From contig LBYP01000010.1 of the NCBI GenBank assembly GCA_000996245.1, positions 1-51,463 on the forward strand: 51,463 nt of DNA, given 5' to 3'. Every line of letters begins with the position of its first letter. Position 1 is the first letter of the stretch. Position numbers and translations under genes: made by a program. Below, piece by piece: positions 1,881 to 35,695 of the stretch. The notes below the pieces were generated by a model. It had not been told where the DNA came from and searched no databases. It saw only the letters and a list, made by a program, of their open reading frames with translations. Source of the stretch: Parcubacteria group bacterium GW2011_GWA2_40_23. GTDB lineage: Bacteria; Patescibacteriota; Patescibacteriia; UBA11705; JABHMO01.

Positions 1881-1984
1881 TATAATAGAGTCACCCAGCA
1901 CCACTCGCTTCTCTCGGGTTCTGGGTAAACCAGTACTCCTGCACCACAAACTGCCTTTGGGTGCGGGGCAAGCCCAAAACACTT

Positions 1985-3436: not shown

Positions 3437-3441
3437 AATTT

Positions 3442-5727: not shown

Positions 5728-6756
5728 ATGTTGACGTTCATTGGAATCGGAATCGTTGTGCTCGTCTTGCTGGGGTGGTACCTCAGCAAGTGCTTGGTCG
5801 TCACCGAGGCCGCGACCTACACAGTCGTCGGTCTCTTGGGAAAGAGCCCCACGAAAAGCCTGACCCCACCCTTGAACCTCATTTGCTACCCGATCACACA
5901 GGTTATGGGCGTGATCACCACTGAAGTGCAACGGTACAACATGACCAACTGCACCCTCTCCTGCAAGATGACGGACCCGAGTGGCGGTCAAGGCATCGGC
6001 AAACTCTCGACCAAGGAAGTATCGCTGGCCTACCAGTTCTACTTCTGGACGCAGGCCGAGATCCGCGACAAGGACGCCACGGTCGTCCTCCCCCCGGGAT
6101 TCGGCATGGCGCTCCAGCTACAAAAGTTCTTCGAGTTCGTGGGGTTCCACGAGGCGAAGATCGACATTGCCAGCATGGAGGAGACCCTCAAAGACTCCCT
6201 CCAAGGAGCTTTCACACAGCACAGCAAGAGCTTGGAACTGGAGGCAGCCATCAACTTCCCCAAAGCCTCGCTCACGGAGATCAAAGACGCCCTCCAGAGG
6301 GAGTTCTGGGAAGATGGTCTGCCGGTGAAGGTGATCGTTCTGCAACGGAATGCCCCATTCGAAGCCCTCGACACACTTGGGAGAGCCATCGCTTCTCGGG
6401 CTGAGTCGCTGGCATTGCTGCCAGCCGAAGTGGCCAAGGCTGAGAATGCCCGCCGCCTGGCGGTCATCAAAGCCACCACCGACAGGGAAGTTGCAGGCAT
6501 CAAAGTTGAGACAACTCGACTCGAAGGAGAAGCCGAAGGTGCCAAGGTCAAGGTCCGAGTGGCCGCGATCATGGACGCCTACGGGCTCACTGTCATGCCC
6601 CCAGCTGAACGGATGGCTAATTACCTAAGCCTCGAAAGTCTCGAGGTATACAAAGTGATGGCCGCCAGCCCGAGCAGCAAAATGATCCTTGTGCCGACCG
6701 AACTGCTCTCAAGCATCGGTGGCGCACTGTCACACCTCACTGGAGTCAAACCATGA
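5728..6756 (+). CDS. SPFH/Band-7 (stomatin/prohibitin/HflKC-like) membrane protein, GC-rich
   Basis: N-terminal TM (FIGIGIVVLVLLGWYL). Ala/Glu-rich coiled region AEVAKAENARRLAVIKATTDREVAGIKVETTRLEGEAEGAKVKV. C-terminal YLSLESLEVYKVMAASPSSKMILVP resembles SPFH tails. Family call is from motif recall only. Confidence 0.55.
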   Translation: MLTFIGIGIVVLVLLGWYLSKCLVVTEAATYTVVGLLGKSPTKSLTPPLNLICYPITQVMGVITTEVQRYNMTNCTLSCKMTDPSGGQGIGKLSTKEVSLAYQFYFWTQAEIRDKDATVVLPPGFGMALQLQKFFEFVGFHEAKIDIASMEETLKDSLQGAFTQHSKSLELEAAINFPKASLTEIKDALQREFWEDGLPVKVIVLQRNAPFEALDTLGRAIASRAESLALLPAEVAKAENARRLAVIKATTDREVAGIKVETTRLEGEAEGAKVKVRVAAIMDAYGLTVMPPAERMANYLSLESLEVYKVMAASPSSKMILVPTELLSSIGGALSHLTGVKP

Positions 6757-7385
6757 AGCGAAGCACTGCACTCATTCTCTCGCTGATGCTCTTCGGAGTG
6801 GGTCTCGTCCTCGCGGACAACCTGCTCGACTGGAGTATGGGGTGGAAGATTGCAGTTGCGGTAGCGCTGGCACTCGTGCCGTTCTACTTCATCGGACGAG
6901 GTTCCGCTCCCACCACCCCCGGCACTACTACGACCCCCGCCGCAGCCATCACCTACCCAGGGCTAGACAAAGCCTGGATCTGGATCCTGACCATCCTCCT
7001 CGGAGGTCTGGTCCTCTACGGTGCTGTGTTCTGGGTCAGCGTCCCCATTCGCGACTTGGTCAGGGAAGCAGTTGCTACCCCGGACACACATATCGTGGAG
7101 AACGGCTTCCCGCGACACGATGCTCCGCGCCAGGAGCAGGACATCATTCCGCCGTTCAACAAGATCTTGTCTGCCGGCAAGACCTACCAGGTCTTCAAGC
7201 TGAAGCGGGGGGACATCTTCAACGTCACCCAGCTCTCGGCGCCGATCAGGTACAAGATCGAAAACCCTGTCGTGACAGGGTTCGCCCCGATCGACAACCC
7301 GATAAAAATTCGCGTGAACTACGATGGCAACCTACTGGTCGTCTCTACGGCCGGCAGGAACACCGTCATGATCGCGCGAGAATGA
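6753..7385 (+). CDS. Membrane protein with a beta-rich C-terminal domain, translationally coupled to the SPFH gene (position analogous to NfeD partners)
   Basis: ATGA start/stop overlap with the upstream gene. Three hydrophobic segments, a Pro/Thr linker, and a C-terminal half rich in beta-type residues. Same GC-rich composition as the SPFH gene. Confidence 0.55.
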   Translation: MKRSTALILSLMLFGVGLVLADNLLDWSMGWKIAVAVALALVPFYFIGRGSAPTTPGTTTTPAAAITYPGLDKAWIWILTILLGGLVLYGAVFWVSVPIRDLVREAVATPDTHIVENGFPRHDAPRQEQDIIPPFNKILSAGKTYQVFKLKRGDIFNVTQLSAPIRYKIENPVVTGFAPIDNPIKIRVNYDGNLLVVSTAGRNTVMIARE

Positions 7386-10072: not shown

Positions 10073-10101
10073 TACAGTACACGCCTGGCGTGACTGTATG
10101 G
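10070..10101 (+). repeat. tRNA 3-prime hairpin repeat, copy 1 (starts on the CCA end)
   Basis: CCATACAGT-A-CACGC-CTG-GCGTG-ACTGTATGG, 14 bp of stem. Confidence 0.8.
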
Positions 10102-10171
10102 TGAACCATCCATTAGTAGTAGTGCACGATTCTCGTGGTTGTATGGTGCACCATCCATTGGCAAACGATTT

Positions 10172-10253: not shown

Positions 10254-11126
10254 TTAGGACTGACGTACGGGCTTGAAGTTGTCGAGGATGCTCGCACGCG
10301 CCCAGAGACGGATGTACTTTTCGGTCTTCTCGGACCGGATGGACTGCTTGAGCAAGTTCTGTGCCACGACCAGCTCCGGGAAGATCATATGATCCAAATC
10401 AAGCCGCAAGAAGCGGTAGAGATCCGGTCCGACCTTGAAGGAGGTCCTCTGGACCAAAAGCTTCTCCGTCAGCTCGAAGAGCATCTGAACTGCGGGATCC
10501 GTGTTCGCGGGATCAGGACGCACACGCGCCTTGAAGATGTCGATCTGCTCGAGGGCGTGCATCGCCAGTTCGTGATCTACGATCGTGATCGTGTTCACGC
10601 GCGCCATCACTCGACGCCGTCCATCGGTACTGGTGAAAGTCACCTGCGTACGCAAACGACCCTTGGCATCGAACAAATGCGGGAAAACGTGCGCCGTAAC
10701 GTAATTTTCACGCGCACCACTGGCTTGCACCAACGCTGCATTCAACGCGAAAACCTGGTTCACGATCTCGTCGTTCAAAGCACAGCGCGCCTTCTCGGCG
10801 TCCATGACACGATCGAGCTCGCTCTTCAGGGCATCGCGATTCCGCTGTTCCTCGGCCAGCTGTTCACGCAGTTCATCACGACGACGCGTCAGCTCCGGAT
10901 CCTTCTCATCGAAGGTGTCGATGACAGCATGAAGCTCTTTCTCTCGCTTGGTACCGTGCCGAGTAAGGTGACGCAGATCATGCACTGCCTTCTTGTACCG
11001 CCGGTGCCACGTTGTCCAAGAACCACGCGCTTGGGCTTCGAGCTTCTTCAGCTGCTCGAGCTTCTTGTCCAGTACCGCCAGACCTTCTTGCAGCGTTCCG
11101 ATCACGGTTTTCTTGCCTTGTCCCAT
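10254..11126 (-). CDS. GC-rich hypothetical cytoplasmic protein with an N-terminal coiled coil (single-gene island between tRNA genes)
   Basis: Start chosen at MGQGKK (ATG 11126), preceded by GGAGG with a 7-nt spacer. Balanced composition, own promoter and terminator. The C-terminal LLKQSIRSEKTEKYIRLWAR region loosely recalls Mu-like phage DUF3164 proteins; this is unverified recall. Confidence 0.6.
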   Translation of the reverse strand: MGQGKKTVIGTLQEGLAVLDKKLEQLKKLEAQARGSWTTWHRRYKKAVHDLRHLTRHGTKREKELHAVIDTFDEKDPELTRRRDELREQLAEEQRNRDALKSELDRVMDAEKARCALNDEIVNQVFALNAALVQASGARENYVTAHVFPHLFDAKGRLRTQVTFTSTDGRRRVMARVNTITIVDHELAMHALEQIDIFKARVRPDPANTDPAVQMLFELTEKLLVQRTSFKVGPDLYRFLRLDLDHMIFPELVVAQNLLKQSIRSEKTEKYIRLWARASILDNFKPVRQS

Positions 11127-11170
11127 GAGTAACCTCCATAACTCTACAGTGGAACGCACTCGAACTAGCT

Positions 11171-11482: not shown

Positions 11483-11511
11483 TAAAGTACACGCTACGCG
11501 TGACTTTATGG
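11480..11511 (+). repeat. tRNA 3-prime hairpin repeat, copy 2 (starts on the CCA end)
   Basis: CCATAAAGT-A-CACGC-TAC-GCGTG-ACTTTATGG. Differs from copy 1 by a compensatory C-G to A-T change. Confidence 0.8.
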
Positions 11512-11530
11512 TAAACCACATAATCTAGTT

Positions 11531-11559
11531 TAAAGTACACGCTATGCGTGACTTTATGG
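11531..11559 (+). repeat. tRNA 3-prime hairpin repeat, copy 3 (not attached to a tRNA)
   Basis: TAAAGT-A-CACGC-TAT-GCGTG-ACTTTATGG. Confidence 0.7.
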
Positions 11560-11596
11560 CAAGCCATTCATTGATTGTGGTAAACCACAATTTACT

Positions 11597-12637: not shown

Positions 12638-13778
12638 ATTTGATCAACGTCTGGAATTTTTTAATTGTTATTTCCCAAGTAAATTGACGTGCCCGCTGTT
12701 CGCCCCGCAAAATCAGTCTCTGACGAACAAGCTTATCTTCTAAAACAGTTTTTATGGCATGACGAATATCATTTATATCTTCAGAATCAACAAGCAAGGC
12801 TTCACCATCGCTAGCGATTTCTTTAAGCGATGAATTATTTCCTGCGATAACAGGAACCTTTAGCGCCATCGCCTCTAGCATCGGGAAGCCAAACCCCTCG
12901 TAACGCGAAGGGAAAACAAAGGCTTGAGCATTTTTAAGCAATATATTTCTTTCTCGATTACTAACTTTGCCTATATATTTAACTTGAGCTTTTGGAAAAC
13001 GATGGTTAATGTTAGTTAAATATTGAAAAATAGGTTGGAATTTCCAGCCACGGTTCCCGGCCAAAATTAAATTGATATTACTTTCTTCATTCTCAAATAG
13101 AAAATTTGTAAAAGCTTTAATTAAGTTAAGAATATTTTTGCGCGGTTCTATTGTTCCCAAGTAAAGAACATAATCATTGTGAATATCAAATTTTTCTAAG
13201 ACTTTTTTATTTTCCTCCACAATATAGTTATCCTTAATAATAACTCCAGGATAAATCACTCTAATTTTATCTGAATTTACTTTAAATAGACTAAGAATGT
13301 CGTCACGTGTACTTTGTGAAACAGTCACGATTATTTTGGCTTTGCGTAAACTTAGCGGCACTAAAATTTTAGTCGAAAACCACTGACGGTCTGGAAACCA
13401 TTCCGGATGTAAGTAGATGGCAAGATCATGAACAATCAGAATAGACTTTTTGCGATAGAACAAAGGAATTATATTGGCTGGAAATATTGTTAAGTCTAGC
13501 TTTTCTTTTTTTAGGGAACGAGAAAATCGGAAATGATTATCGTAAAGTGGAATTTTTGATTCATGACGAAATAATTTAACGATACGAACACGATCATTGC
13601 TGCCGCGGACCTTATGAATCGTTTCCGGGCTAATATCACTATGAAAAAAAAGGACAAAGTCATTATGCTCGTCCATAGCTAGAAGATTTTTTACAAAATG
13701 ATAAACGTAACGTTCTACTCCAGCGCCGCGGTTGGCATGAACATCGTAAAAATTTCGACAATCAATGCCGATACGCAT
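12636..13778 (-). CDS. Glycosyltransferase, GT4/GT1 family
   Basis: Start at MRIGIDCRNF (13778) avoids overlap with the upstream gene. C-terminal EGFGFPMLEAMALKVPVIAG motif. Confidence 0.8.
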   Translation of the reverse strand: MRIGIDCRNFYDVHANRGAGVERYVYHFVKNLLAMDEHNDFVLFFHSDISPETIHKVRGSNDRVRIVKLFRHESKIPLYDNHFRFSRSLKKEKLDLTIFPANIIPLFYRKKSILIVHDLAIYLHPEWFPDRQWFSTKILVPLSLRKAKIIVTVSQSTRDDILSLFKVNSDKIRVIYPGVIIKDNYIVEENKKVLEKFDIHNDYVLYLGTIEPRKNILNLIKAFTNFLFENEESNINLILAGNRGWKFQPIFQYLTNINHRFPKAQVKYIGKVSNRERNILLKNAQAFVFPSRYEGFGFPMLEAMALKVPVIAGNNSSLKEIASDGEALLVDSEDINDIRHAIKTVLEDKLVRQRLILRGEQRARQFTWEITIKKFQTLIK

Positions 13779-17648: not shown

Positions 17649-18932
17649 TTAAGGATAAATGCGATTGATCATTCTTGGAAAAGGAATCGTTTCGCGGACA
17701 TGTTGAACTCCACACATCCAACCGACTAAACGTTCTAAGCCGACACCGAAGCCCGAATGAGGCACTGACCCGAATTTGCGTAGTTCTAGGTACCACGTAA
17801 ACGCCTCTTCGGGCAGCTTATCATCGACGATACGTTTGTGCATGATCTCAAAACTATCTTCACGTTGCGAACCACCAATAACTTCGCCATGGCCTTCGGG
17901 CGCAATCATGTCATCGCACAAAGCGAGGTCACCATCGCGCTTCATATAAAAAGCTTTTATTTCTGCTGGCCATTTTTCAATAAATAAAGGCTTATCAAAT
18001 TTTTGCATGATTAATGTTTCATCATCATTACCTAAATCTTCGCCATCTTTAATGTCAGAACCAAGTTCTTGCAACATTTTAATGGCTTCAGCATAAGTTA
18101 AACGGTTGAATGGTGCTTTAATTTTTTCGAGCACAGTTTTATCTCGTTCTAAAATATCTAATTCTTTTTGATTAATCTCTAAAACTTTTTTGGCAACATG
18201 CGCAATCAAGTTTTCTTGAAGTTCTAAACTTTTAACATGATCATAAAATGCCATTTCTGCATCCATCATCCAAAATTCAGTTAAATGTCTTTTGGTTTTT
18301 GATTTTTCGGCGCGGAAAACTGGGCCAAAGTCAAAAACTTTCCCGAAGGAAGAAATAGCAGCTTCGATATAGAGTTGACCACTTTGAGAAAGATAAGCTT
18401 TACCTTCATCAAAATATTTCATTTCGAACAATTCAGTGGTGCCTTCGCAAGCAGCTGGAGTTAAAATCGGAGAATCAATTTTAATAAAGCCATCATTATT
18501 TAAGAATTCATAAATCGCATTAATGACGGTGTTGCGCACTCGTTGTATGGCCCATTGTTTTGGTGCGCGCAACCATAAGTGACGATTTTCTAATAAAAAA
18601 TCGGGACCATGTTCTTTTTTCCCGATTGGATATTCTTCGGCGCGTTGGAAAAATTTTAATGTTTTGACTTGGACTTCGTACTCATCTAATTTTGGATGTT
18701 TAGAAACAGTACCAATAATTTCAACAGAACTTTCGATGGTCATTTCTTCCATGACTTTCCACGTTTGCTCATCAACACTAGTTTGACTGACGATACACTG
18801 CGCAAAGCCAGAACCATCGCGTAACTGTATAAACCCTATTTTGCCAGATGAACGGAAATTATAAACCCAGCCTTTGAGAACCACTTCTTTGTCTAAATTT
18901 GCTTTGAGATCTTTGATGTATGTTTGTTCCAT
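17649..18932 (-). CDS. asnS: Asparaginyl-tRNA synthetase (class IIb)
   Basis: 427 aa. YLSQSGQLYIE, GPVFRAEKSKTKRHLTEFWMMDAEMAF, GFGVGLERL, FPRMINRIYP. Confidence 0.85.
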   Translation of the reverse strand: MEQTYIKDLKANLDKEVVLKGWVYNFRSSGKIGFIQLRDGSGFAQCIVSQTSVDEQTWKVMEEMTIESSVEIIGTVSKHPKLDEYEVQVKTLKFFQRAEEYPIGKKEHGPDFLLENRHLWLRAPKQWAIQRVRNTVINAIYEFLNNDGFIKIDSPILTPAACEGTTELFEMKYFDEGKAYLSQSGQLYIEAAISSFGKVFDFGPVFRAEKSKTKRHLTEFWMMDAEMAFYDHVKSLELQENLIAHVAKKVLEINQKELDILERDKTVLEKIKAPFNRLTYAEAIKMLQELGSDIKDGEDLGNDDETLIMQKFDKPLFIEKWPAEIKAFYMKRDGDLALCDDMIAPEGHGEVIGGSQREDSFEIMHKRIVDDKLPEEAFTWYLELRKFGSVPHSGFGVGLERLVGWMCGVQHVRETIPFPRMINRIYP

Positions 18933-18964: not shown

Positions 18965-19093
18965 AAATTTACGAATAGTACAAATTATTTGGATGTTACG
19001 AATTACTGCTTACCAATAACCTAAATTTCTATTTAACAATCAAATCCAGATAGTAATTCGTAAGTTCAACTTCATGTAGCTATTCGTAAATTT
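18965..19093. repeat. Nested inverted-repeat element of the TACGAAT word family, complete copy
   Basis: Outer arms AAATTTACGAATAG / CTATTCGTAAATTT (14 bp, perfect). Inner arms TTACGAATTACT / AGTAATTCGTAA (12 bp, perfect). Confidence 0.85.
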
Positions 19094-19103
19094 AGCGAAG
19101 ACG

Positions 19104-19132
19104 TTGACAAAAAACGCGAAAAATAATAAGGT
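19104..19132 (+). promoter_or_regulatory. Promoter of cassette P1
   Basis: TTGACA, 17-nt spacer, TAAGGT. The same TTGACA-N17-TAAGNT form is seen at 21392 and 24065. Confidence 0.5.
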
Positions 19133-19175
19133 TTTGTCATGAGCGGAGAAAGTAAAAACCACGTTGAGGCAAAAC

Positions 19176-19982
19176 ATGTTCTTCATCCTCTTTTTGCTAG
19201 CATTAGTCGGAGTTGTGTTGTTCATCGTCGGAGTAACCGAACACAAGGAACAAGTCGGCACTCTTGGCTTAGCCCTGGTTCTTATCTGTGCAATCCTCGC
19301 TCTGATCTTGCCGAAAGAGGCACAGGCTCAGACTGCCACCTGCACCGGCGACAGCTGGATCGGCAACGTCTGCCAGAGTGGTGGAGTGAACCAATCCAAA
19401 GAACCTTCAATCTCCTCCCACCAAGTCAGCTACAACACCGGCGAGTACTCGGTTATCGCACAGCCAGGAAGCTGCAACGACAAGACCTGCTGGTACACGA
19501 TCATCGTGTATGCTAAAAGCGGGATCATCACAGCCATGTTCGAGAACAACTACACGCTCATCGAAGCAATTTCTCCTGGTTGTTGGAAGTTGCAACAGAC
19601 GGACGAGTTCATAGGTCTCGCGGGCTTGCCAAATGACGCCGGACCGTTCATGCCGCTCGTCATCTGCAAACGCGAGGGTCTTTACTACGACGGCACGGAT
19701 AAAGAACTTGCACCGTTCCTCAAAGAACGCCTCGACAAGATCCTCTGTGCCACGCGCGACTGCCGAGATGCAAGAACCTGCGTGAACGATGTGAAGATGA
19801 AAGCGCTCATCGTCGAGCTGCACATCATCCAGATGATCTTGTGGAAAGCTGGTTGGAAAATTGCCTTGCCCGAAGGTTGGCATGGTGGCTTGAACCAAGG
19901 TGAGATAAACCGTTTGACGCATGACGTCGAGCGCATCATCAACATCCGTTTCCAAGGTCACCTGCCTTCGACCTCTCGATGA
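19176..19982 (+). CDS. GC-rich secreted/membrane paralog P1 (uncharacterised family)
   Basis: ATG 19176 is preceded by GAGG. Hydrophobic N-terminus ending AQAQ. Shares blocks with P2-P4: VSYNTGEYSVIAQPGSC..C.Y.I, GCWKLQQTDEFIGL, VICKREG. Confidence 0.75.
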   Translation: MFFILFLLALVGVVLFIVGVTEHKEQVGTLGLALVLICAILALILPKEAQAQTATCTGDSWIGNVCQSGGVNQSKEPSISSHQVSYNTGEYSVIAQPGSCNDKTCWYTIIVYAKSGIITAMFENNYTLIEAISPGCWKLQQTDEFIGLAGLPNDAGPFMPLVICKREGLYYDGTDKELAPFLKERLDKILCATRDCRDARTCVNDVKMKALIVELHIIQMILWKAGWKIALPEGWHGGLNQGEINRLTHDVERIINIRFQGHLPSTSR

Positions 19983-19993
19983 AGGAGAAAACC

Positions 19994-20104
19994 ATGGACG
20001 ACAACAACGCTCCGATCACCGGCTGGAGCATCCTGAAGTTCATCGGCTTGCTCATCTTCTGTGCATGGCTGTTCAAGTGCTTTTGCCAGCTCATCGCTGG
20101 CTAG
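19994..20104 (+). CDS. 36-aa single-TM mini-protein S1
   Basis: AGGAG RBS 7 nt upstream. MDDNNAPITGWSILKFIGLLIFCAWLFKCFCQLIAG. GC-rich. Followed at once by a terminator. Below the ORF-track size cutoff. Confidence 0.5.
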   Translation: MDDNNAPITGWSILKFIGLLIFCAWLFKCFCQLIAG

Positions 20105-20111
20105 ACCCTCG

Positions 20112-20150
20112 CCCCCACAATCGACATCGGTTGTTGGGGGTATTTATTTA
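20112..20150 (+). terminator. Intrinsic terminator after S1
   Basis: CCCCCACAA-N10-TTGT(T)GGGGG followed by TATTTATTT. Confidence 0.7.
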
Positions 20151-20228
20151 CTATGATTACCCTGATTACGAGGTGATTACTATGATTAGTTTGGGAAATA
20201 AAAAAATGTTTGTTTGCTTGTTTCTTTT

Positions 20229-20250
20229 CCCGCCGCTCGCGAGCAGCGGG
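20229..20250. repeat. GC mini-hairpin with CTCGCGAG core, present in module 1 and absent from module 2
   Basis: CCCGCCGCTCGCGAGCAGCGGG. A similar hairpin, CCCCGCTTCTCGCGAGAGGCGGGG, occurs at 43898-43921. Confidence 0.75.
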
Positions 20251-20362
20251 ATTTGTTTATTTTAATATGAGGAATGATTAACAGTTCGATTTGATGTCGG
20301 GCTCGCTTAGACCGCGAAGTGAGGCAGGCGAATTAATATTTAGTAGTGGCTTAGAACAATTC

Positions 20363-20392
20363 CGTACGTGCAGGTCGCGACCTGCACGTACG
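20363..20392. promoter_or_regulatory. Perfect 30-bp palindrome upstream of the P2 promoter (candidate operator)
   Basis: CGTACGTGCAGGTCG|CGACCTGCACGTACG, 54 nt upstream of the -35. No T-run follows. Second copy at 22997-23026 has one central mismatch. Confidence 0.6.
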
Positions 20393-20445
20393 AGACCAAT
20401 TTCGAGTTAATTAATGTAATTTTAGACAAAAAGTACTGACAACGA

Positions 20446-20474
20446 TTGACAAAACATTTTATTTGTGCTATCAT
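20446..20474 (+). promoter_or_regulatory. Extended -10 promoter of cassette P2
   Basis: TTGACA (20446-20451), 17-nt spacer, TGc-TATCAT (20469-20474). Confidence 0.65.
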
Positions 20475-20504
20475 GTGAGTAACAAACCTGCCTGAGGGCA
20501 CACC

Positions 20505-21233
20505 ATGCGGAAGATCATCGAAGCCACCGTCCTCGCCCTGTGCGCCATCGCCGCGATCCTGGTCATGGCCACCCCGGCCAAGTGCCAGACCAACACCTGC
20601 CCCTGCGCCATCGCCGACTGCCCGCCCTGCGACGAGTCGTCGCCCTACAACGCGACCCGCGCCGCCGAATCCGAAGAGGGCATCCAGACCTACACCAGCA
20701 ACAGGTTCCAGGTCAAAGCAACACCCCTCTGCGGAGGCTCCGGTTGCACCTACGCCATCGAAGTCTCGCGACTCGATGGAAAACACGAAGTCCTGTTCCG
20801 GTTCCTCAACCTGCTGTCAGGGATCACTGTCCTGAACGAAACCTGTGTGCTCATCCAGAGCACCAAGGACTTCAACGGCATCGACATGTTGCCCGAGCTC
20901 TACGGACCGTCGATCGGGATAGTTCTCTGCAAGGAAGGAAAAAACTTCGTCGAGAAGACCGCCTCGTTCATGGGCAATTTCTTGCGTGATCAAATCTCCG
21001 GACTGGAAGCCTGGCACGACACGTTGGTCGACAACCCCAGGGTGCTGAAGTCGCTCATCATCAAAGCTATGGCCATCAAGGAGCTGTTCTACCGCGAAGG
21101 ACTTCAGCCTCCCAAGATGCCAAAGATGGACGCCGACATCGCCAAGCTCGACAGCAAGACCTACAAGAGAATCGAGCTCGAAATCATCAAGCGCTGCAAC
21201 CAGCGCATGCTTTACCGGGGTCTCGCGAACTAG
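20505..21233 (+). CDS. GC-rich secreted/membrane paralog P2 (uncharacterised family)
   Basis: 242 aa. Hydrophobic N-terminus. QTYTSNRFQVKATPLCGGSGCTYAIEV, TCVLIQSTKDFNGI, VLCKEG, IKELFYREGLQPP, C-terminal RMLYRGLAN. Confidence 0.8.
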   Translation: MRKIIEATVLALCAIAAILVMATPAKCQTNTCPCAIADCPPCDESSPYNATRAAESEEGIQTYTSNRFQVKATPLCGGSGCTYAIEVSRLDGKHEVLFRFLNLLSGITVLNETCVLIQSTKDFNGIDMLPELYGPSIGIVLCKEGKNFVEKTASFMGNFLRDQISGLEAWHDTLVDNPRVLKSLIIKAMAIKELFYREGLQPPKMPKMDADIAKLDSKTYKRIELEIIKRCNQRMLYRGLAN

Positions 21234-21255
21234 TCGCGCCCCGCGTGCTACACAG

Positions 21256-21288
21256 CTGCTACCTTCTTCCCGGGGGGTAGCAGTTTTT
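21256..21288 (+). terminator. Intrinsic terminator after P2
   Basis: CTGCTACC-N12-GGTAGCAG followed by TTTTT. Confidence 0.75.
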
Positions 21289-21348
21289 CTATACTACGAA
21301 TTACTAATCGTCTACAAATCTACTAATAGCTACGAATAGCTTCATAAA
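21289..21348 (+). repeat. TACGAAT/TACTAAT word block following the P2 terminator
   Basis: ctatactacgaattactaatcgtctacaaatctactaatagctacgaatagcttcataaa. Near-identical copy at 23914-23973. Confidence 0.85.
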
Positions 21349-21391
21349 TAAGAAATTTTATCTAAGATTAAACAAAAAAACATCATAACCA

Positions 21392-21420
21392 TTGACAAAA
21401 CAATATGTTAGTGCTAAGTT
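21392..21420 (+). promoter_or_regulatory. Promoter of cassette P3
   Basis: TTGACA, 17-nt spacer, TGc-TAAGTT. Confidence 0.55.
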
Positions 21421-21451
21421 TTAATCAATTCATTTCCCTAAGGGGAAGATC

Positions 21452-22135
21452 ATGCCGATCGCTCGTCCCTTCGACAAATCCTTCTGGCTGGCAGTCATCC
21501 TGTTCTCCATCGCTCTCGCCTGTGTGATCTTCTCGTTCACTCCACGTGACGCCAACGCCCAGACCGTGACGATTCGCGTATCCTACACCAGCAACGGTTA
21601 CATCGTGAAGGCCTCGCCTTCATGCGTCAACTCCAACTGCGTGTACGTCATCAGCATCACGCAGAAGAACAACGACACGATCATGACCTTGCAGAACGAC
21701 AGCCCGTTCGTGGAAGTGCTGGACGACAAGTGCATCCGCATCAATTCGACGAACGACTTCATGGGCATCGGCGACGCCGAACACGAGTTCGGTCGCTGGA
21801 TCCCGCAAGTCGTGTGTGTGGAAGGTAGGATCTACGCCGACCGCACCGCTTCGCGCCTCGAGAAAGAGCTCCGGCTCCGAGTGGCGGACATCGAGTCTAC
21901 ACTCGCGCTCGATGACATCATGGGCAGCTACTGCGACGAGCCGTGGCGGTCAAATGCCACCTTCGCCAAGATCGTGGAGTTGAAGGCCATCCAGCACATG
22001 TTCATTCGCGAGAACCTAACGCCCCCAGCCATGCCAATCCTCGGTCTCCTCGATAAAATGTTCTCCGAAGATCTCGACACCATCATGCGTCAGCTCTTAG
22101 AGGAACGCCTGACCTATCGAGGGCTCGGGTCGTGA
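21452..22135 (+). CDS. GC-rich secreted/membrane paralog P3 (uncharacterised family)
   Basis: 227 aa. Signal-like N-terminus ending ANAQ. VSYTSNGYIVKASPSCVNSNCVYVISI, KCIRINSTNDFMGI, VVCVEG, IQHMFIRENLTPP, C-terminal RLTYRGLGS. Confidence 0.8.
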   Translation: MPIARPFDKSFWLAVILFSIALACVIFSFTPRDANAQTVTIRVSYTSNGYIVKASPSCVNSNCVYVISITQKNNDTIMTLQNDSPFVEVLDDKCIRINSTNDFMGIGDAEHEFGRWIPQVVCVEGRIYADRTASRLEKELRLRVADIESTLALDDIMGSYCDEPWRSNATFAKIVELKAIQHMFIRENLTPPAMPILGLLDKMFSEDLDTIMRQLLEERLTYRGLGS

Positions 22136-22184
22136 TCAACTTCTGGAACAAGTACCGTTCACCAACACCGAACCGGAGGTTTAC

Positions 22185-22628
22185 ATGTTTCCTTCGTGGA
22201 AAGAGATCGCCATTAGCTTATTCCTCGTCTCGCTAATGCTGTCCATCCTTGTCGGCCTTCACTCTATTAGCCGGGAAAAGGAGTCGACCGACACTCCCCT
22301 CTCCGCAGAAGCCTGCGAGACCGCTCTGGTCTACATGGACTTGCACCTCGACCTCGAAGCCAATCCGCCAGGTGTGAACCACTCGATCCAGAAGGACTTC
22401 GATGGTGTCCTTCTGCTGCGCAAGCAGTGTCAAGAGAGCAGCGACCGCCTGGCGCTGGTCAAGACCTACGTGACCAATGAACGGCTCGCGAAGTTGCTCG
22501 AAAATTCCTGGGACGCTACTCGAGAACTCCACCAAGTCGTAACGACTGGAGAAGCACTCATGAAGCAGCTTCCGCCCCAAGGGAAAAACTTCAAGGAGTG
22601 GCACTGCGAACAGTGCAACCAGCCCTGA
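22185..22628 (+). CDS. GC-rich N-terminally anchored hypothetical protein
   Basis: 147 aa. GGAGG RBS. One N-terminal TM (IAISLFLVSLMLSILVGL). C-terminal CEQC. Confidence 0.6.
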   Translation: MFPSWKEIAISLFLVSLMLSILVGLHSISREKESTDTPLSAEACETALVYMDLHLDLEANPPGVNHSIQKDFDGVLLLRKQCQESSDRLALVKTYVTNERLAKLLENSWDATRELHQVVTTGEALMKQLPPQGKNFKEWHCEQCNQP

Positions 22629-22657
22629 GACTAGCAACCGACAGACAGGAGGCCACC

Positions 22658-22771
22658 ATGTTCATCGTCAGCTCCGTCCCCCAGGTTTCCCAGGCTGGCG
22701 GCGTGGTCATCATCATCCTGCTGCTGCTCCTCATCTTAGCTTCCAGTCAGAGCAAGCGCTGGCAAGCCTAA
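22658..22771 (+). CDS. 37-aa single-TM mini-protein S2
   Basis: AGGAGG RBS. MFIVSSVPQVSQAGGVVIIILLLLLILASSQSKRWQA. Occupies the same position as S1, immediately before the shared terminator/module. Confidence 0.5.
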   Translation: MFIVSSVPQVSQAGGVVIIILLLLLILASSQSKRWQA

Positions 22772-23140
22772 CTCTCGCCCCCACAATCGACATCGGTTGT
22801 GGGGGTATTTTTTTACCATGATTACTACTATGATTACCCTGATTACGAGGTGATTACTATGATTAGTTTGGGAAATAAAAAATGTTTGTTTGCTTGTTTA
22901 TTTTAATATGATTAACAACTCGATTTGATGTCGGGCTCGCTTCGACCGCGAAGTGAGGCAGGCGAATTAATATTTAGAAGGGGCTTAGAACAATTCCGTA
23001 CGTGCAGGTCACGACCTGCACGTACGAGACCAATTTCGAGTTAATTAATGTAATTTTAAACAAAAAGTGCTGACAACGATTGACAAAACATTTTATTTGT
23101 GCTATCATGTGAGTAACAAACCTGCCTACTGGGGAACACC
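22772..23140 (+). repeat. AT-rich intergenic module, copy 2
   Basis: Terminator CCCCCACAA/TTGTGGGGG plus T7 (22778-22814). Five GATTAC/GATTAG words (22820-22866). Palindrome 22997-23026. Promoter TTGACA 23080-23085 and TATCAT 23103-23108. Confidence 0.9.
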
Positions 23141-23860
23141 ATGAAGTCCGAGACCCAGAAAGAAATCGTGTTCTGGAGCGGTGTTTTCGCGGGCCTGGCC
23201 GTGATCCTGTGCCTGACCCTCCTCCCCTCCAAATGCACCCGCCAGACCTTCCCCAACCCGCCCAGCAGCGAACGTGCGGAAGAGACGGGCGGAGCCTATG
23301 CTGTCCGCGACCAGCTGAACAAGAAGTTCTTAGTCAGCTGGGATCCGAGCTACGGCATGAGCAGCTACAGCTACACCCTACGGATCGTCCGCAACAACGG
23401 CTCGCACGAGATGGTGGTCGCGTTCTACAACAACGACTACACCGTCCGAGTGAAGAACAACGGGCGCTGCATCGAACTGCCGATCACGCGCGACTACTGC
23501 GCGATCGGTGACGTACCCATGTCCGACTGCCCCATCGTCCCCATGGTCTTCTGCCGCGAAGGTGACAACTGGGTGGACGTGACCGCACAGCTCATGGGCA
23601 AAACCCTGCACGAGCGACTGCTCAACCTGGAACGGCTCACGGCCGTCTGGGAGGAGACCTCCGACACGCAGCGCAAAGCCATGATCGTCGAGAGCATGGC
23701 TCTCCGTGAGCTGTACTACCGTCGCGGCCTCGTCCCGCCCACCACCACGCTCATGACCAACCTTCTGACCTACTTCGGGGAAAAGTACTACAACGAAGTA
23801 GAGACGGGGGTCATGGAGGCAACGAGCAATCGCCTGCTCTACCGGGATCTCGCGAAATAG
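23141..23860 (+). CDS. GC-rich secreted/membrane paralog P4 (uncharacterised family)
   Basis: 239 aa. TM anchor VFWSGVFAGLAVILCLTLL. RCIELPITRDYCAIG, VFCREG, LRELYYRRGLVPP, C-terminal RLLYRDLAK. Confidence 0.8.
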   Translation: MKSETQKEIVFWSGVFAGLAVILCLTLLPSKCTRQTFPNPPSSERAEETGGAYAVRDQLNKKFLVSWDPSYGMSSYSYTLRIVRNNGSHEMVVAFYNNDYTVRVKNNGRCIELPITRDYCAIGDVPMSDCPIVPMVFCREGDNWVDVTAQLMGKTLHERLLNLERLTAVWEETSDTQRKAMIVESMALRELYYRRGLVPPTTTLMTNLLTYFGEKYYNEVETGVMEATSNRLLYRDLAK

Positions 23861-23881
23861 TCGCTGACCCATGCTACACAG

Positions 23882-23913
23882 CTGCTACCTTCTTCACAGG
23901 GGGTAGCAGTTTT
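23882..23913 (+). terminator. Intrinsic terminator after P4
   Basis: CTGCTACC-N12-GGTAGCAG followed by TTTT. Same stem as at 21256. Confidence 0.75.
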
Positions 23914-24001
23914 CTATACTACGAATTACGAATCGGCTACGAATCTACTAATAGTTACGAATAGCTTCATAAAATTGATGGTTACGAATTAGAATTTCTA
24001 A

Positions 24002-24029
24002 GTAGGGGTTCAAAATTTTGAACCCCTAC
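24002..24029. repeat. Perfect 28-bp palindrome upstream of the cupin promoter
   Basis: GTAGGGGTTCAAAA|TTTTGAACCCCTAC. Similar in form to the central hairpin of the four-way-junction elements. Confidence 0.8.
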
Positions 24030-24064
24030 CAAAAAGACGTTTAAAAATCGACAACGATGACCGA

Positions 24065-24093
24065 TTGACAAAACCACCCAAAAACAGTAAGCT
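24065..24093 (+). promoter_or_regulatory. Promoter of the cupin gene
   Basis: TTGACA, 17-nt spacer, TAAGCT. 5-prime UTR hairpin GATGCC-TCT-GGCATC. GGAGG at 24124. Confidence 0.5.
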
Positions 24094-24133
24094 CTTTTGA
24101 TGCCTCTGGCATCGCAAACAACTGGAGGTTCCC

Positions 24134-24649
24134 ATGTCCACGCCCCAAGTGTTCGTAAAAACACCTGCGATCCGTATCGTCGAAACGCTCTTTGGCGGTC
24201 GCGCGTACTTGGTCGAACTGCCCGTCGATGCCCACACAGTCGTGGTCGAGGGCACCAGCTTCCCGCCCGAACTGAACGTTACCGAGTTCTCGCCCCGCGT
24301 CTACTCCATCGTCGGCAAAAAGCTGAGCGGTTCGCACGCACACCGCGCTGGCACCGAAGACGAGATCATGCTCGTGGTCGCCGGCGAAGCGACGGTGCAC
24401 CTCTGGGACGAGAGTGGCAAGCACGAAGAAGTCACCCTCCGCCCCGCGACCGACGGCCAGAAGTTCTGGGCGCTGTTCATCCGCTCCGGTATCTGGCACA
24501 CCGTACGCTACAAGCCCCACACGGCGCTGAACGTCGTCGCCTCGGTCCACTACGACCGCGAGTACTACGTCGTAGATCCAGCCGACTACTTCACCGCCGA
24601 AGGCCACGCGCTGTACCTGCACGACATCATTTCCCTTAACGGAAACTGA
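24134..24649 (+). CDS. GC-rich cupin, WxcM/FdtA-like (sugar 3,4-ketoisomerase-like fold)
   Basis: 171 aa. SGSHAHRAGTEDEIMLVVAGEA..V.L.D..G, LFIRSGIWHTVRY, NVVASVHYDREYYVVDPADYF. These match the remembered FdtA pattern (HAH.., WH, AS..YD..DY). Confidence 0.5.
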   Translation: MSTPQVFVKTPAIRIVETLFGGRAYLVELPVDAHTVVVEGTSFPPELNVTEFSPRVYSIVGKKLSGSHAHRAGTEDEIMLVVAGEATVHLWDESGKHEEVTLRPATDGQKFWALFIRSGIWHTVRYKPHTALNVVASVHYDREYYVVDPADYFTAEGHALYLHDIISLNGN

Positions 24650-24688
24650 GCAACTCCCCACGTCTGCGACTAGATCGCAGTGGGCTTA

Positions 24689-24916: not shown

Positions 24917-25927
24917 ATGAAACATTTCATCATAGACGAAAAAAATCAGAAAGTCCGTTTGGATAAATTTTTGGTTGCCAAAACTGGTAAAACCAGAAGC
25001 CAAATTCAAAAAAACATTTTAAGTGAATCTGTTTTAGTTAATGATAAACCGGCCAAAGTTCATCAATTTTTATGTTTTAAAGATAAAGTGACTGTTTTGG
25101 ACGCGGACCCGAATCGACAAAAGCAAGAGCCCAAAGAACCATTGCGCCCAGATACAGAAGCTGGCAAAAAAGCCCTTAAACTTGTGGCTCGCGCTGCTCG
25201 GGCATTAAAGGTGCCGGTTCCAAAAGTTGTTAAAAAAACAAAGGATTATTTAATTATCGAAAAACCATCTGGTCTTTTGGTTCATGCCACCTCAAAAGAT
25301 GAACCGAGTACCTTGGTGACTTGGTTGGTTAAAAAATATCCGCAAATTAAAAAAATCGCTGACCCTGAATCATTAAAAAAACGCGATAAAATTTATCGTC
25401 CCGGTATTGTGCATCGCCTCGACAAAGATGTTTCTGGTTTAATGATTATTCCGCTCAATCAAGATGCTTTCGAATATTACAAAGAACAATTCAAACAAAA
25501 ATTAATTAAAAAACAATACACTGCCCTTGTCTTTGGTCAGTTGCCACAACCGCACGGTTTAATTGAATTTGAAATCAGCCGTAAATCAACTGGCGGCAAA
25601 ATGGCCTCGCACCCCAAAGGTTCTGGTAAAGGCAAATATGCGCAAACAGAATATAATGTTGTCCAACAATTTAGTAAATTCTCGTTAGTGGAAATTAATT
25701 TACATACTGGCCGAACCAATCAGATCCGCGTGCATTTTATGGCTTTAAAAAATCCTGTTGCTGGCGATGAACTTTATAATCTTAAAAGCTTCACCTCAAA
25801 AGTTTACATCCCGCGCATTCTTTTGCACGCGAACAGATTGGAATTTGTGGATCAAAACAATAAACCTCAACTATTTACTTCCGACCTACCGAAGGAATTT
25901 GATGATGTGGAGAAGCAACTTAAGTAA
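24917..25927 (+). CDS. RluA-family 23S rRNA pseudouridine synthase (RluD-like) with an S4 domain
   Basis: N-terminal S4-like RLDKFLV...VLVNDKPAK. Catalytic HRLDKDVSGLMI. NQIRVH. Lys/Pro-rich insertion after the S4 domain. Confidence 0.8.
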   Translation: MKHFIIDEKNQKVRLDKFLVAKTGKTRSQIQKNILSESVLVNDKPAKVHQFLCFKDKVTVLDADPNRQKQEPKEPLRPDTEAGKKALKLVARAARALKVPVPKVVKKTKDYLIIEKPSGLLVHATSKDEPSTLVTWLVKKYPQIKKIADPESLKKRDKIYRPGIVHRLDKDVSGLMIIPLNQDAFEYYKEQFKQKLIKKQYTALVFGQLPQPHGLIEFEISRKSTGGKMASHPKGSGKGKYAQTEYNVVQQFSKFSLVEINLHTGRTNQIRVHFMALKNPVAGDELYNLKSFTSKVYIPRILLHANRLEFVDQNNKPQLFTSDLPKEFDDVEKQLK

Positions 25928-31859: not shown

Positions 31860-32022
31860 AATATTTACTAATTACTAATACTATTACTAATTTACTAATG
31901 ATTACTAATTATTAGTTACGATTTGTAAATTAGTAGCAAATTCGTAATTAGTAATTAAAGAAACATGCTGTCTGCGATTATAACAATATTATTTAATCTT
32001 GTAAAGAGTTAAGTTGCGAATA

Positions 32023-32123
32023 GGGCATTTTTATTAGGATATTACGAATTATTACTTAGCAATTGAAACTTAACAGTAATTCGTAACATCAACTTTATGA
32101 CGCTATTCGTAACAAAAAACGAG
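32023..32123. repeat. Nested inverted-repeat element of the TACGAAT word family
   Basis: Outer arms GTTGCGAATAG / CTATTCGTAAC. Inner arms ATTACGAATTATTACT / CAGTAATTCGTAAC. Confidence 0.75.
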
Positions 32124-34811: not shown

Positions 34812-35009
34812 AAGTTTCTAAATTTAATGCTAAAATTTCCCCAAAACTTGAAAATGTGCTATCCTTTAATTATTAAAGTGATTTGTGTGGATAATCGACT
34901 ACATATTTACAAGCGGGGTTTACGAGACCCCGTTTTATTTTTGGAGTTTATAGCTTCATTTTAGCAAAACAACAAATACCTGTCAACATTTTGACGCTTT
35001 TAAAAATAT

Positions 35010-35038
35010 TTGACAAAAGAAATTTTAAAAGTTATACT
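35010..35038 (+). promoter_or_regulatory. Promoter of the LexA-like gene (transcript essentially leaderless)
   Basis: TTGACA (35010-35015), 17-nt spacer, TATACT (35033-35038). ATG at 35048. Inverted repeat GTCAA-CATT-TTGAC at 34982-34995, just upstream. Confidence 0.55.
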
Positions 35039-35047
35039 GGATATATA

Positions 35048-35695
35048 ATGAAACGCAAAAATATGCACCAAATTCAACAAAAAATATTAAATTTTGCCGA
35101 TAAACTAAATCTAAAACGAGACGGACTTAGACAGATTGGCAGATTGGTTGGTGAACCACACCCTTTTACAGTTTCTTATCACTTAAAAAAACTTGAAGAA
35201 AAAGGTTTTATTAAAATTGATAAAAAAACTGGCGAAATAAAAAAAATAAAAAACGATGGACCACAAAAAGGTTTATTTTTGGCGATTCCCGTTCTTGGAT
35301 CTGCAAACTGCGGAGATGCAAACATATTTGCCGAAGAAAATTTAGAGGGCTATATCAAGGTGTCAAAAAATATTATTAAGGCTGGCGAGGGTTTGCTTGC
35401 AATTAAAGCCTCTGGTAATTCAATGAATAAAGCCGATGTTAATGGTCAAAATATTGAAGACGGAGATTATGTTATTGTTAATTCAAAAAAACAACCTCAG
35501 CCGAATGATTATGTTTTAGCAATTATTGATAATTGTGCAAATATAAAAAAGCTATTATTGGATTCTAAAAATAAAGTTATTTCTTTAATGTCAGAATCAA
35601 CAGAAAATCATCCAATTATTTTTATTCATGAAACAGATAAATTTTTAATAAATGGGGTAGTCAAATATATAATTAAAAAACCGATTGTTAATTGA
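35048..35695 (+). CDS. LexA/CI-like repressor: winged HTH plus S24 self-cleaving peptidase domain
   Basis: The ORF-track start (TTG 34991) lies upstream of the predicted promoter's -35 element, so ATG 35048 is preferred. wHTH (GEPHPFTVSYHLKKLEEKGFI). S24 motifs GNSM and a downstream Lys (NIKKLL). Confidence 0.65.
   Translation: MKRKNMHQIQQKILNFADKLNLKRDGLRQIGRLVGEPHPFTVSYHLKKLEEKGFIKIDKKTGEIKKIKNDGPQKGLFLAIPVLGSANCGDANIFAEENLEGYIKVSKNIIKAGEGLLAIKASGNSMNKADVNGQNIEDGDYVIVNSKKQPQPNDYVLAIIDNCANIKKLLLDSKNKVISLMSESTENHPIIFIHETDKFLINGVVKYIIKKPIVN

Follow-up and report, generated by a model that had tools for sequence, protein, structure and literature searches.

Near-identical non-coding flanks around divergent secreted-protein genes in a Patescibacteria genomic island: probable ectopic gene conversion between gene slots

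We analysed a 51,463-nucleotide (nt) stretch of DNA from Parcubacteria group bacterium GW2011_GWA2_40_23 (contig LBYP01000010.1), referred to here as the window, or W. The organism belongs to the Patescibacteria, a lineage known as episymbionts with ultra-small cells. The subject of this work is an island of 5.7 kb in the window, located between the AsnRS gene (17649-18932, minus strand) and the RluD gene (24917-25927), with chromosomal housekeeping genes on either side. The island carries four tandem paralogs, P1 to P4, that encode orphan secreted proteins with 20-32% amino-acid (aa) identity among them, and two of these, P2 and P4, have non-coding flanks that are far more alike than the genes that they enclose. 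The island genes lie without exception on the + strand and are GC-rich (GC 0.53-0.62; GC content at third codon positions, GC3, 0.66-0.85); the intergenic DNA of the island has a GC content of 30-41%, and the genome is AT-rich, with housekeeping genes at GC 0.37-0.39 and GC3 of about 0.30 (0.29-0.33 for the neighbours of the island). The main comparison is with the island of a sister species, R (L001/L002, bridged to L007 by L096), and "slot" denotes the position of a gene within the island. The features of the island are as follows.

19176-19982, + strand: P1, first paralog of the family; alternative TTG start at 19164; own promoter, TTGACA at 19104; R ortholog 74% aa
19979-20104, + strand: mini-peptide 1, a small hydrophobic open reading frame (ORF); likely start the ATG at 19994; stop codon adjoins module 1
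20105-20504, + strand: upstream module 1, a complete intergenic region
20111-20150, + strand: T1 intrinsic terminator, module 1
20149-20190, + strand: TGATTAC word array, module 1
about 20228-20270, + strand: 42-nt insert with a second small hairpin, module 1 only
20363-20392, + strand: 30-nt perfect palindrome, module 1
20446-20474, + strand: promoter TTGACA-17-TATCAT, module 1, followed by the 5' untranslated region (5'UTR)
20505-21233, + strand: P2 (242 aa); codons 1 to about 31 are the signal peptide, common to the slot-2 gene of R
21234-21348, + strand: 3' flank 1, with T2 intrinsic terminator (hairpin 21254-21285), then a block of TACGAAT/TACTAAT words
21452-22135, + strand: P3, third paralog; own promoter, TTGACA at 21392; R ortholog 66% aa
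22185-22628, + strand: 147-aa gene 3' of P3; a non-homologous 222-aa gene at the same position in R
22598-22771, + strand: mini-peptide 2; likely start 22659; stop codon adjoins module 2
22772-23140, + strand: upstream module 2
22777-22816, + strand: T1 terminator, module 2
22815-22868, + strand: TGATTAC words, module 2
22997-23026, + strand: palindrome, module 2
23080-23108, + strand: promoter, module 2, followed by the 5'UTR
23141-23860, + strand: P4 (239 aa); mature part orthologous to R_P4 (P0002), 75% aa overall
23861-23991, + strand: 3' flank 2, with T2 terminator (23872-23913), TACGAAT word block and left arm of a dispersed inverted-repeat element (23952-23991)
24134-24649, + strand: GC-rich cupin gene (WxcM/FdtA C-terminal-like), last gene of the island; own TTGACAAAAC promoter at 24065

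Alignment of positions 20085-21360 with positions 22752-23990 by MAFFT, followed by quantification of identity, shows that the flanks of P2 and P4 are near-copies of each other and that the genes are not. The two upstream modules align with 336 matches and 21 mismatches (94% identity at ungapped positions; 94.8% when counted up to 13 nt before the ATG) and four indels, of 11, 1, 42, and 2 nt, and the 3' flanks (21234-21348 vs. 23861-23973) are 91% identical. The P2 coding sequence (CDS; 20505-21199) and its P4 counterpart, by comparison, are 48.4% identical at the nucleotide level, and the proteins are 30-32% identical. The edge of the upstream tract is sharp: identity falls from 96-98% to about 40-50% inside one 50-nt window at the ATG and climbs again about 30 nt before the stop codon, such that the 5' coding parts of P2 and P4 are unrelated and the only likeness in coding sequence is over the last approximately 34 nt (82% identical). 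The ends of the mini-peptide genes immediately 5' of the modules (20085-20104 for the first) are only 58% identical, and the mini-peptides are thus unrelated to each other. A preliminary description of this DNA, made from the sequence by eye, had claimed end-to-end alignment of the modules with few substitutions and four indels, near-identical 3' flanks, homology that enters the CDS ends and stops at the ATG, proteins identical at well under half of positions, and unrelated mini-peptides. All of these claims were borne out, and the pairwise comparison that it proposed gave a CDS identity that is not comparable to that of the flanks (91-95%).

The arrangement is not a product of assembly. An artefact was considered as its source and was rejected: an independent European Nucleotide Archive (ENA) assembly, L092, matches 20.7 kb of the window arrangement with a single-nucleotide polymorphism (SNP). 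That sole difference, at window position 20595 (L092 10091), is a non-synonymous A>C change, Thr31Pro in P2, and its site coincides exactly with the point at which W-R homology breaks down in slot 2. A short-read contig, L089, breaks near both repeated modules, beginning 41 nt before the P2 start codon and ending about 84 nt past mini-peptide 2.

The shared flanks consist of a small number of parts. T1, the intrinsic terminator of the upstream mini-peptide gene, has the form CCCCCACAATCGACATCGGTTGTGGGGG followed by Ts; T2, a second type of terminator, has the form GCTGCTACC...GGTAGCAGTTTT. A spacer of about 110 nt lies in the module between the TGATTAC-word/hairpin part and the palindrome, and the promoter, TTGACAAAAC-17-TATCAT, which matches 11/12 consensus positions and has a TG extension, is followed by a short 5'UTR (about 25-30 nt). 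The promoter element TTGACAAAA occurs five times in the island; P1 to P4 are individually promoted, and all units, which are co-oriented, begin with a sigma-70-type promoter and end in an intrinsic terminator of their own. Folding strength is high for the T1 hairpin (z = -3.9), the T2 hairpin (z = -3.1), and the palindrome (z = -6.9); the hairpins are perfect or terminator-like, with T-runs behind them, and the segment 20285-20345 folds no better than shuffles. An Rfam scan of the flanks at E <= 1 returned two sub-threshold chance matches and no family. T1 has no exact match in 185,579 GTDB species genomes, neither T1 nor the palindrome, the two motifs scanned (T2 was not), has an exact match in IMG/VR, and in Joint Genome Institute (JGI) metagenomes T1 is confined to sister-species contigs. 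T1, T2, and a 40-nt 5'UTR are 95-100% identical between W and R, a sign of functional constraint; the shared parts of the flanks would act as promoter and terminators.

Two further structured elements accompany the parts. The palindrome, CGTACGTGCAGGTCGCGACCTGCACGTACG (30 nt, perfect), is confined to these islands (20363-20392 and 22997-23026 in the window; L090 10312-10339 and 10360-10387; L007 1087-1115). The two tandem copies in L090 carry compensatory arm changes (CAG/CTG vs. TAA/TTA), which argues for reading the palindrome as a structural hairpin rather than as a protein half-site. In most family genes a hairpin of 4-5 bp lies just 5' of the start codon, with a Shine-Dalgarno-like 3' arm, GGGG/GGGCA (20474-20504, 21419-21451; L001 13672-13705; L008 8688-8722). 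Compensatory differences between its arms are seen from gene to gene (TGCC/GGCA, TCCC/GGGA, TTCCC/GGGAA); the hairpin has low thermodynamic stability, and P4 lacks it.

One way to obtain alike flanks around unlike genes would be to duplicate the whole unit (module, gene, and 3' flank) recently and in tandem, after which diversifying selection would have changed the coding part alone at extreme speed. Flanks that are about 95% identical beside very different CDSs fit such a history, as does the pace of the family: between W and R, dN (non-synonymous divergence) is 0.19-0.23 for P-family genes vs. 0.01-0.05 for housekeeping genes, that is, protein evolution about 10 times faster. The age of the paralogs does not fit. 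Synonymous sites of P2 vs. P4 are saturated (proportion of synonymous differences, pS, 0.53; aa identity 32%), and P1, P3, and P4 each have an ortholog in R (74%, 66%, and 75% aa, respectively; dS, synonymous divergence, 0.45-1.0; dN/dS 0.18-0.42). Because these orthologs are retained at 66-75% aa, the paralogs clearly predate the W-R split and are old rather than recently diversified, with the flank copies made after that split. An ortholog dN/dS of 0.18-0.42, not above 1, places P1, P3, and P4 under net purifying selection despite their fast evolution. The dN/dS between paralogs, which the preliminary description had proposed to estimate, meets the saturation just described, and the dN/dS values given here are those of orthologs; its suggestion that intense diversifying selection made P2 and P4 differ is not supported. 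With paralogs older than the W-R split, recent duplication plus diversifying selection is in effect ruled out, and we give it hardly any credence. The mismatch in age can also be expressed directly: divergence is about 5% in the flanks and at saturation between P2 and P4, and housekeeping genes of W vs. R have dS of 0.44-1.25 (dN/dS 0.02-0.05), which places the flank copies well after the species split and the CDS paralogs well before it.

Comparison of the flanks between species indicates when and how they came to be alike. Islands at the same chromosomal position were recovered from R, L090, L008, and L093; L090 and L008 serve as partial outgroups to W and R. The order AsnRS, island, RluD is fixed in six related genomes (W, R, L090/L091, L008, L093), with differing gene sets; in R, for example, three additional units precede P1 on the AsnRS side, and another separates P4 from the cupin gene. 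By comparison of AsnRS, the closest relatives of the window are metagenome-assembled genomes labelled Falkowbacteria, Komeilibacteria, or Patescibacteria. Over the 100 nt before the start codon, identity is 91% for W_P2 vs. W_P4 and 83% for R_P2x vs. R_P4 (P2x being the slot-2 gene of R), but 73% for W_P4 vs. R_P4. Over the 110 nt after the stop codon, identity is 88% within W and 83% within R, vs. 67-75% between genomes. The indels and spacers are genome-specific in the same manner: in W, TGATTAC words and the palindrome precede P2 as well as P4; in R, another spacer, its two copies 90% identical over 230 nt, precedes P2x and P4, and the segment of TGATTAC words plus palindrome lies 5' of the cupin gene instead. 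An insertion of about 30 nt of TACGAAT words is present in both W 3' flanks and in neither R 3' flank. The P2 and P4 coding tails agree even at synonymous sites (tac-cgg-gGt/gAt-ctc-gcg-aa), whereas the YRGL motif of P3 uses other codons. The likeness of flanks within each genome, together with the shared indels and spacers, shows that after the species split each genome homogenised its own flanks, at both gene ends, with the cores left untouched. The gene conversion at the flanks that the preliminary description had proposed is thus supported by paralogous flanks that are closer within a genome than orthologous flanks are between genomes.

The same comparison bears on another account, namely that the flanks are ordinary regulatory DNA of orthologous type, held alike by purifying selection, with no recombination between slots. 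The 95-100% identity of T1, T2, and the 40-nt 5'UTR between species, and hexamers and hairpins that look functional, are what such an account predicts. It cannot account for identical non-functional spacers and shared indels within a genome, a whole spacer that differs between W and R yet matches between paralogous slots in each, or a W_P4 promoter that resembles P2 (91%) rather than R_P4 (73%). The identities within vs. between genomes thus contradict it, and we consider it very unlikely.

A different origin of the flanks, as small mobile or self-propagating intergenic repeats (MITE/REP-like) inserted independently beside both genes, has more in its favour. T1 is present in 2 copies in W and 4 in the R locus. 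The palindrome recurs in three genomes at differing intergenic positions, including the tandem L090 copies with compensatory arms, and the TACGAAT words are the arms of a dispersed element that is also present at 103-197, 18969-19095, and 31999-32117. The identity between slots is nevertheless colinear over the entire intergenic region, from the upstream stop codon to 13 nt before the ATG; the identical stretch takes in the terminator, the promoter, and about 30 nt of the CDS 3' end; and the module edges have no terminal inverted repeats or target duplications, nor is there a transposase in the window. We consider independent insertion an unlikely explanation, albeit the least unlikely of the alternatives weighed here; such repeats probably supply some of the building blocks, without explaining the whole pattern.

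The dispersed element is a long imperfect inverted repeat of about 110-130 nt with arms GTTACGAATAGCTTCATAAAATTGATGGTTACGAATTACTG and its reverse complement, usually sited between a terminator and the next promoter. In addition to the three window copies above, copies lie at L001 11914-12015, L090 12228-12320, and L007 1105-1190, and half copies at 23952-23991 and 21328-21348. The word TACGAAT is three-fold enriched in the window (22 observed vs. 7 expected).

Two coding cores show replacement of cargo between conserved boundaries. Slot 2 lies between orthologous P1 plus mini-peptide and orthologous P3, and its promoter, 40-nt 5'UTR (100%), and signal peptide are common to W and R. W-R identity in slot 2 collapses after about codon 31 (W 20596) and returns only at T2, 12 nt after the stop codon; in place of the P2 core (W 20609-21245) R has an unrelated family member, with terminator T2 conserved. 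The P2 core of W (20609-21233) is an orphan subtype, <=35% identical to anything found, with the last approximately 34 nt of P4 type. W_P2 is thus a chimera of slot-2 promoter, 5'UTR, and signal peptide (about 90% nucleotide identity with R_P2x), a different core, and a P4-type tail. R and L090 both carry the P2x subtype (the L090 copy with a different signal peptide), and the exchange of the P2 core thus most likely took place in the W lineage. A second case is the 147-aa gene (22185-22628), which is non-homologous to the 222-aa gene of R and lies between orthologous P3 and an orthologous tail (VSQAGG, transmembrane (TM) segment, basic residues) plus T1. The P2 breakpoints do not share a single discrete site: the 5' one falls within the CDS, past the signal peptide, and the 3' one precedes T2.

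Turnover of this kind might reflect a dedicated system for site-specific cassette exchange or phase variation, of the integron, shufflon, or Mycoplasma vsp/vpma kind, with T1, the palindrome, or T2 as its recombination sites. Cargo that differs between conserved boundaries in sister species would be expected of such a system, the conserved hairpins and palindrome could serve as structured recognition sites, and an ultra-small cell of episymbiont type has a lifestyle comparable to that of the Mollicutes, which use such systems. But the 51 kb yielded no recombinase (tyrosine or serine), integrase, transposase, or reverse transcriptase, by Pfam for 29 of the larger ORFs and by pre-computed annotation for the rest (about eight ORFs not scanned directly, which were named from Pfam families pre-computed for the same contig, L088, housekeeping families only). 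The genes share one strand and are individually promoted and terminated; no silent copies are present; the breakpoints do not fall at one discrete core site; and the locus is invariant in 10 assemblies of the population. We consider a dedicated system highly improbable. Of the cassette replacement proposed in the preliminary description, the part that stands is replacement between species, exemplified by the P2 core and the 147-aa gene, and the part that does not is active switching. Likewise, the fixed, invariant locus that it had named as contrary evidence is observed within the W population (1 SNP per 20.7 kb; 10 assemblies) and is accompanied by cargo turnover between W and R.

We propose that ectopic gene conversion, anchored on shared terminator, promoter, and tail parts and acting with no dedicated recombinase, is the best explanation, with a probability of about 0.7. 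With no recombinase, co-oriented units, and breakpoints not at one site, ordinary homologous recombination is the most economical mechanism, and we infer that it is gene conversion of RecA type. According to this proposal, the island would be a set of independent transcription units for orphan secreted proteins, each built from the same few reused non-coding parts: T1, a spacer with TGATTAC words and the 30-nt palindrome, a promoter with a short 5'UTR, T2, and the TACGAAT word block. As these parts are homologous between slots 2.6 kb apart, ordinary homologous recombination would overwrite the flanks of one slot with those of another. The cores (20-32% aa) would be too diverged for heteroduplex, such that conversion tracts would end at the CDS edges, at 13 nt 5' of the ATG on one side and about 30 nt short of the stop codon on the other. 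Paired exchanges in two anchors would now and then replace the segment between them; in the island, a coding core and a spacer have both been replaced.

Several points weigh against ectopic gene conversion as the sole cause. The comparison has a two-lineage basis, both slots being present only in W and R, plus the partial outgroups L090 and L008. The conservation of T1, T2, and the 5'UTR between W and R (95-100%) exceeds that of housekeeping synonymous sites, so purifying selection or inter-species exchange also contributes to the likeness of the flanks. T1, the palindrome, and the TACGAAT element recur elsewhere, and part of the similarity could have come from independent spread of repeats; the search for module copies was confined to the window and the related islands. 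Finally, ten assemblies carrying P3 have the same neighbourhood, with no recombinant or copy-number variant seen, and therefore either conversion would occur only seldom on the time-scale of the population, or sampling took in a clonal population.

The proteins encoded in the island are poorly represented in databases. P1 to P4 each have an N-terminal signal or anchor sequence; no lipobox is present, and the cleavage-type sites are AQA-Q, ANA-Q, and AKC-Q; the signal peptides of P2 and P4 differ, and only P2 and P4 have the common upstream block. Nucleotide similarity of P4 to R_P4 begins at 23239, the signal peptide not being common to both. The P family has no match above threshold in Pfam, NCBIfam, or PHROGs; in the PHROG search, neither the four paralogs nor the other island genes gave a match at E <= 0.001 (best, P3 to phrog_8297, E = 0.006), and the sole clear match was to gene 10254-11132 of a separate GC-rich island (phrog_846, function not assigned, E = 6e-06). 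An exhaustive HMMER search gave 25 cluster representatives among 1.84 billion, where a word-indexed search gave 4-5 matches. An AlphaFold2 (AF2) model of a family protein, of moderate confidence (pLDDT 75), has an N-terminal beta domain and a C-terminal helical bundle and no match at E <= 0.001 in the PDB or among viral folds. Public gene calls misplace ORFs over P1, P4, and the cupin gene (19139-19516, 19407-19961 on the minus strand, 23378-23872 on the minus strand, and 24041-24661 on the minus strand; L088 gene table). These wrong-strand and wrong-frame calls presumably come from a gene finder trained on the AT-rich genome and would account for the absence of most family members from protein databases.

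The mini-peptides have counterparts in R. Mini-peptide 1 has a conserved ortholog (L001 10809-10922) with the same ending, ...AWLFKxFCQLIAG. Mini-peptide 2 is homologous to the C-terminal VSQAGG, TM segment, and basic tail of the 222-aa protein (W 22670-22815 vs. R 13374-13520, 77.5%); what is a separate small ORF in the window (22659-22771) is in R the in-frame C-terminus of that protein (L001 13380-13469). It resembles a GlyGly-CTERM-type sorting signal detached from its protein (NCBIfam GG_III-CTERM, E = 0.06, below cut-off).

The base composition of the cargo is itself anomalous. Across the related islands, genes have GC3 of 0.66-0.96, including 0.91 in the distant L093 and 0.90-0.91 in L008, and housekeeping genes in these genomes have GC3 of 0.27-0.34. 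GC-rich islands (GC 0.53-0.64, GC3 0.66-0.96) occur in the window at 5728-7385, 10254-11132 (minus strand), and 19176-24649, and further islands of GC-rich genes at L008 7341-9734, L093 8001-8801, and L094 8001-8654; in each, the GC-rich genes are flanked by promoters and terminators of an AT-rich, native style. At least two of these, the island beside AsnRS and the gene beside a tRNA (10254-11132), are conserved and have kept their high GC in relatives at dS of up to about 1.2. Because high GC3 is held through vertical inheritance at dS of about 0.5-1.2, one ancient transfer undergoing simple amelioration fits awkwardly; the contrast may be due to an old transfer, to GC-biased conversion, or to selection. 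In a rough polarised count of third-position substitutions, the outcome depends on the composition of the outgroup itself. A literature search found nothing specific on GC-rich islands in Patescibacteria.

The arrangement has several implications. P2 and P4 are likely co-regulated, given identical promoter/operator-like modules, despite about 30% protein identity. In a broader reading, the island would be a natural "standard-parts" expression array in which AT-rich terminator/spacer/promoter scaffolds act as portable homology anchors, whole cores are exchanged without a dedicated recombinase, the cores come from a GC-rich gene pool, and GC3 (up to 0.96 vs. about 0.3) is maintained across species by GC-biased conversion or continuing import, not as the fading trace of one old transfer. 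We offer this reading as speculation and think it unlikely. The lasting GC3 contrast could bear on GC-biased gene conversion or mRNA-level selection in ultra-small cells. In the Patescibacteria, surface and secreted orphan proteins presumably mediate host-cell contact, and little is known of their evolution. Two practical consequences follow for such loci: repeated flanks of this kind break short-read assemblies, as in L089, and GC-rich cargo miscalled by gene finders trained on an AT-rich genome leaves the family hidden from protein databases.

Other features of the window lie outside the island. Two full-length RelA/SpoT-family genes with HD, RelA_SpoT, and TGS domains are adjacent in tandem (240-1880 and 1961-3436). 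A LexA-like repressor is encoded at 34991-35695. Two large proteins, encoded at 3403-5604 and 39155-41119 (GC 0.40-0.48), have Dickkopf_N-like cysteine-rich repeats and a T4SS-pilin-like segment, C-terminal in the first and near the N-terminus in the second, and are probably surface proteins; the pilin match of both and the Dickkopf match of 39155-41119 are just under Pfam gathering scores. The genes for tRNA-Leu(CAA) and a second tRNA-Met(CAT) each have two tandem hairpin repeats of 45-48 nt directly 3' (10073-10168 and 11483-11581), of the form CCATA-AGTACACGC...GCGTGACT-TATGG, a REP-like element family specific to tRNA 3' flanks.

The island can be compared with several known systems. An integron array, which carries an IntI integrase with attI and promoterless cassettes that each end in an imperfect attC hairpin, was rejected: the 51 kb yielded no integrase within the Pfam coverage given above, the units are individually promoted and terminated, and the hairpins are perfect or terminator-like. 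A diversity-generating retroelement, which would pair a reverse transcriptase with template/variable repeats (TR/VR) that differ specifically at adenines, was likewise rejected: the window has no reverse transcriptase, and the CDSs contain no repeat of TR/VR type. The bAvd-like/23S-IVP protein encoded at 42505-42873 lies at a distance of 18 kb, with no reverse transcriptase beside it. Closer likenesses are offered by flexible genomic islands of the replacement type and by phage "morons", compositionally deviant units that each form an autonomous set of promoter, ORF, and terminator. As in flexible islands, a fixed AsnRS/RluD position holds different gene sets in six related genomes; as in morons, the transcription units are self-contained, with GC3 of 0.66-0.85 vs. 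0.29-0.33 for neighbouring housekeeping genes. Unlike morons, the island has no phage genes and no PHROG or viral-fold matches, and chromosomal housekeeping genes lie on both sides. Unlike both, its deviant GC3 is kept across species and is not a sign of recent import, and its flanks are native-style AT-rich DNA common to other intergenic regions of the genome.

The closest parallels are paralog families. In Mycoplasma bovis and M. agalactiae, each vsp/vpma gene has a highly conserved non-coding upstream block, in part together with a conserved signal peptide, and a variable mature part (PMC3365025), and the island likewise combines a minimal-genome bacterium with a gene family that has a conserved non-coding upstream block. 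None of the other vsp/vpma features is present in the island: a neighbouring Xer-type recombinase, genes in inverted orientation, one active promoter only, signal peptides with a lipobox, and tandem repeats inside the genes; an inversion system of this type was rejected, given no recombinase, no lipobox, and genes that are all on the + strand and individually promoted. In the Helicobacter pylori paralogs babA, babB, and babC, near-identical ends enclose a divergent middle, and intragenomic gene conversion between loci makes chimeras and moves regulatory 5' parts (PMC4552749). W_P2, a chimera of slot-2 signal peptide, foreign core, and P4-type tail, resembles these products. The bab ends, however, are long coding N- and C-terminal domains at dispersed loci, whereas here the ends are almost entirely non-coding and the genes are in tandem; the island has no CT-repeat phase variation, and the families are unrelated. 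Membership of the bab type was rejected, since long near-identical coding ends are absent and the coding likeness of P2 and P4 is confined to the last approximately 34 nt. In the tandem lipoprotein-like lpl cluster of Staphylococcus aureus, the evolutionary unit is not the ORF but spans the intergenic region (Tsuru & Kobayashi 2008; PMC2568036). Like P1 to P4, the lpl genes are tandem paralogs for secreted proteins, housed in a genomic island, but the relation of anchor to variable part is reversed: the lpl anchor is a conserved mid-ORF region, with an intergenic block that co-varies with adjacent variable parts, whereas in the island the anchors are the intergenic parts and the heterologous segments are the ORF cores. 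What differs from these cases is that entire non-coding scaffolds are homogenised, that the cores are unrelated-looking ancient paralogs, and that the host is a bacterium of the candidate phyla radiation (CPR). The island provides a clean natural case in which the homogenised unit is the regulatory scaffold between genes and not the genes.

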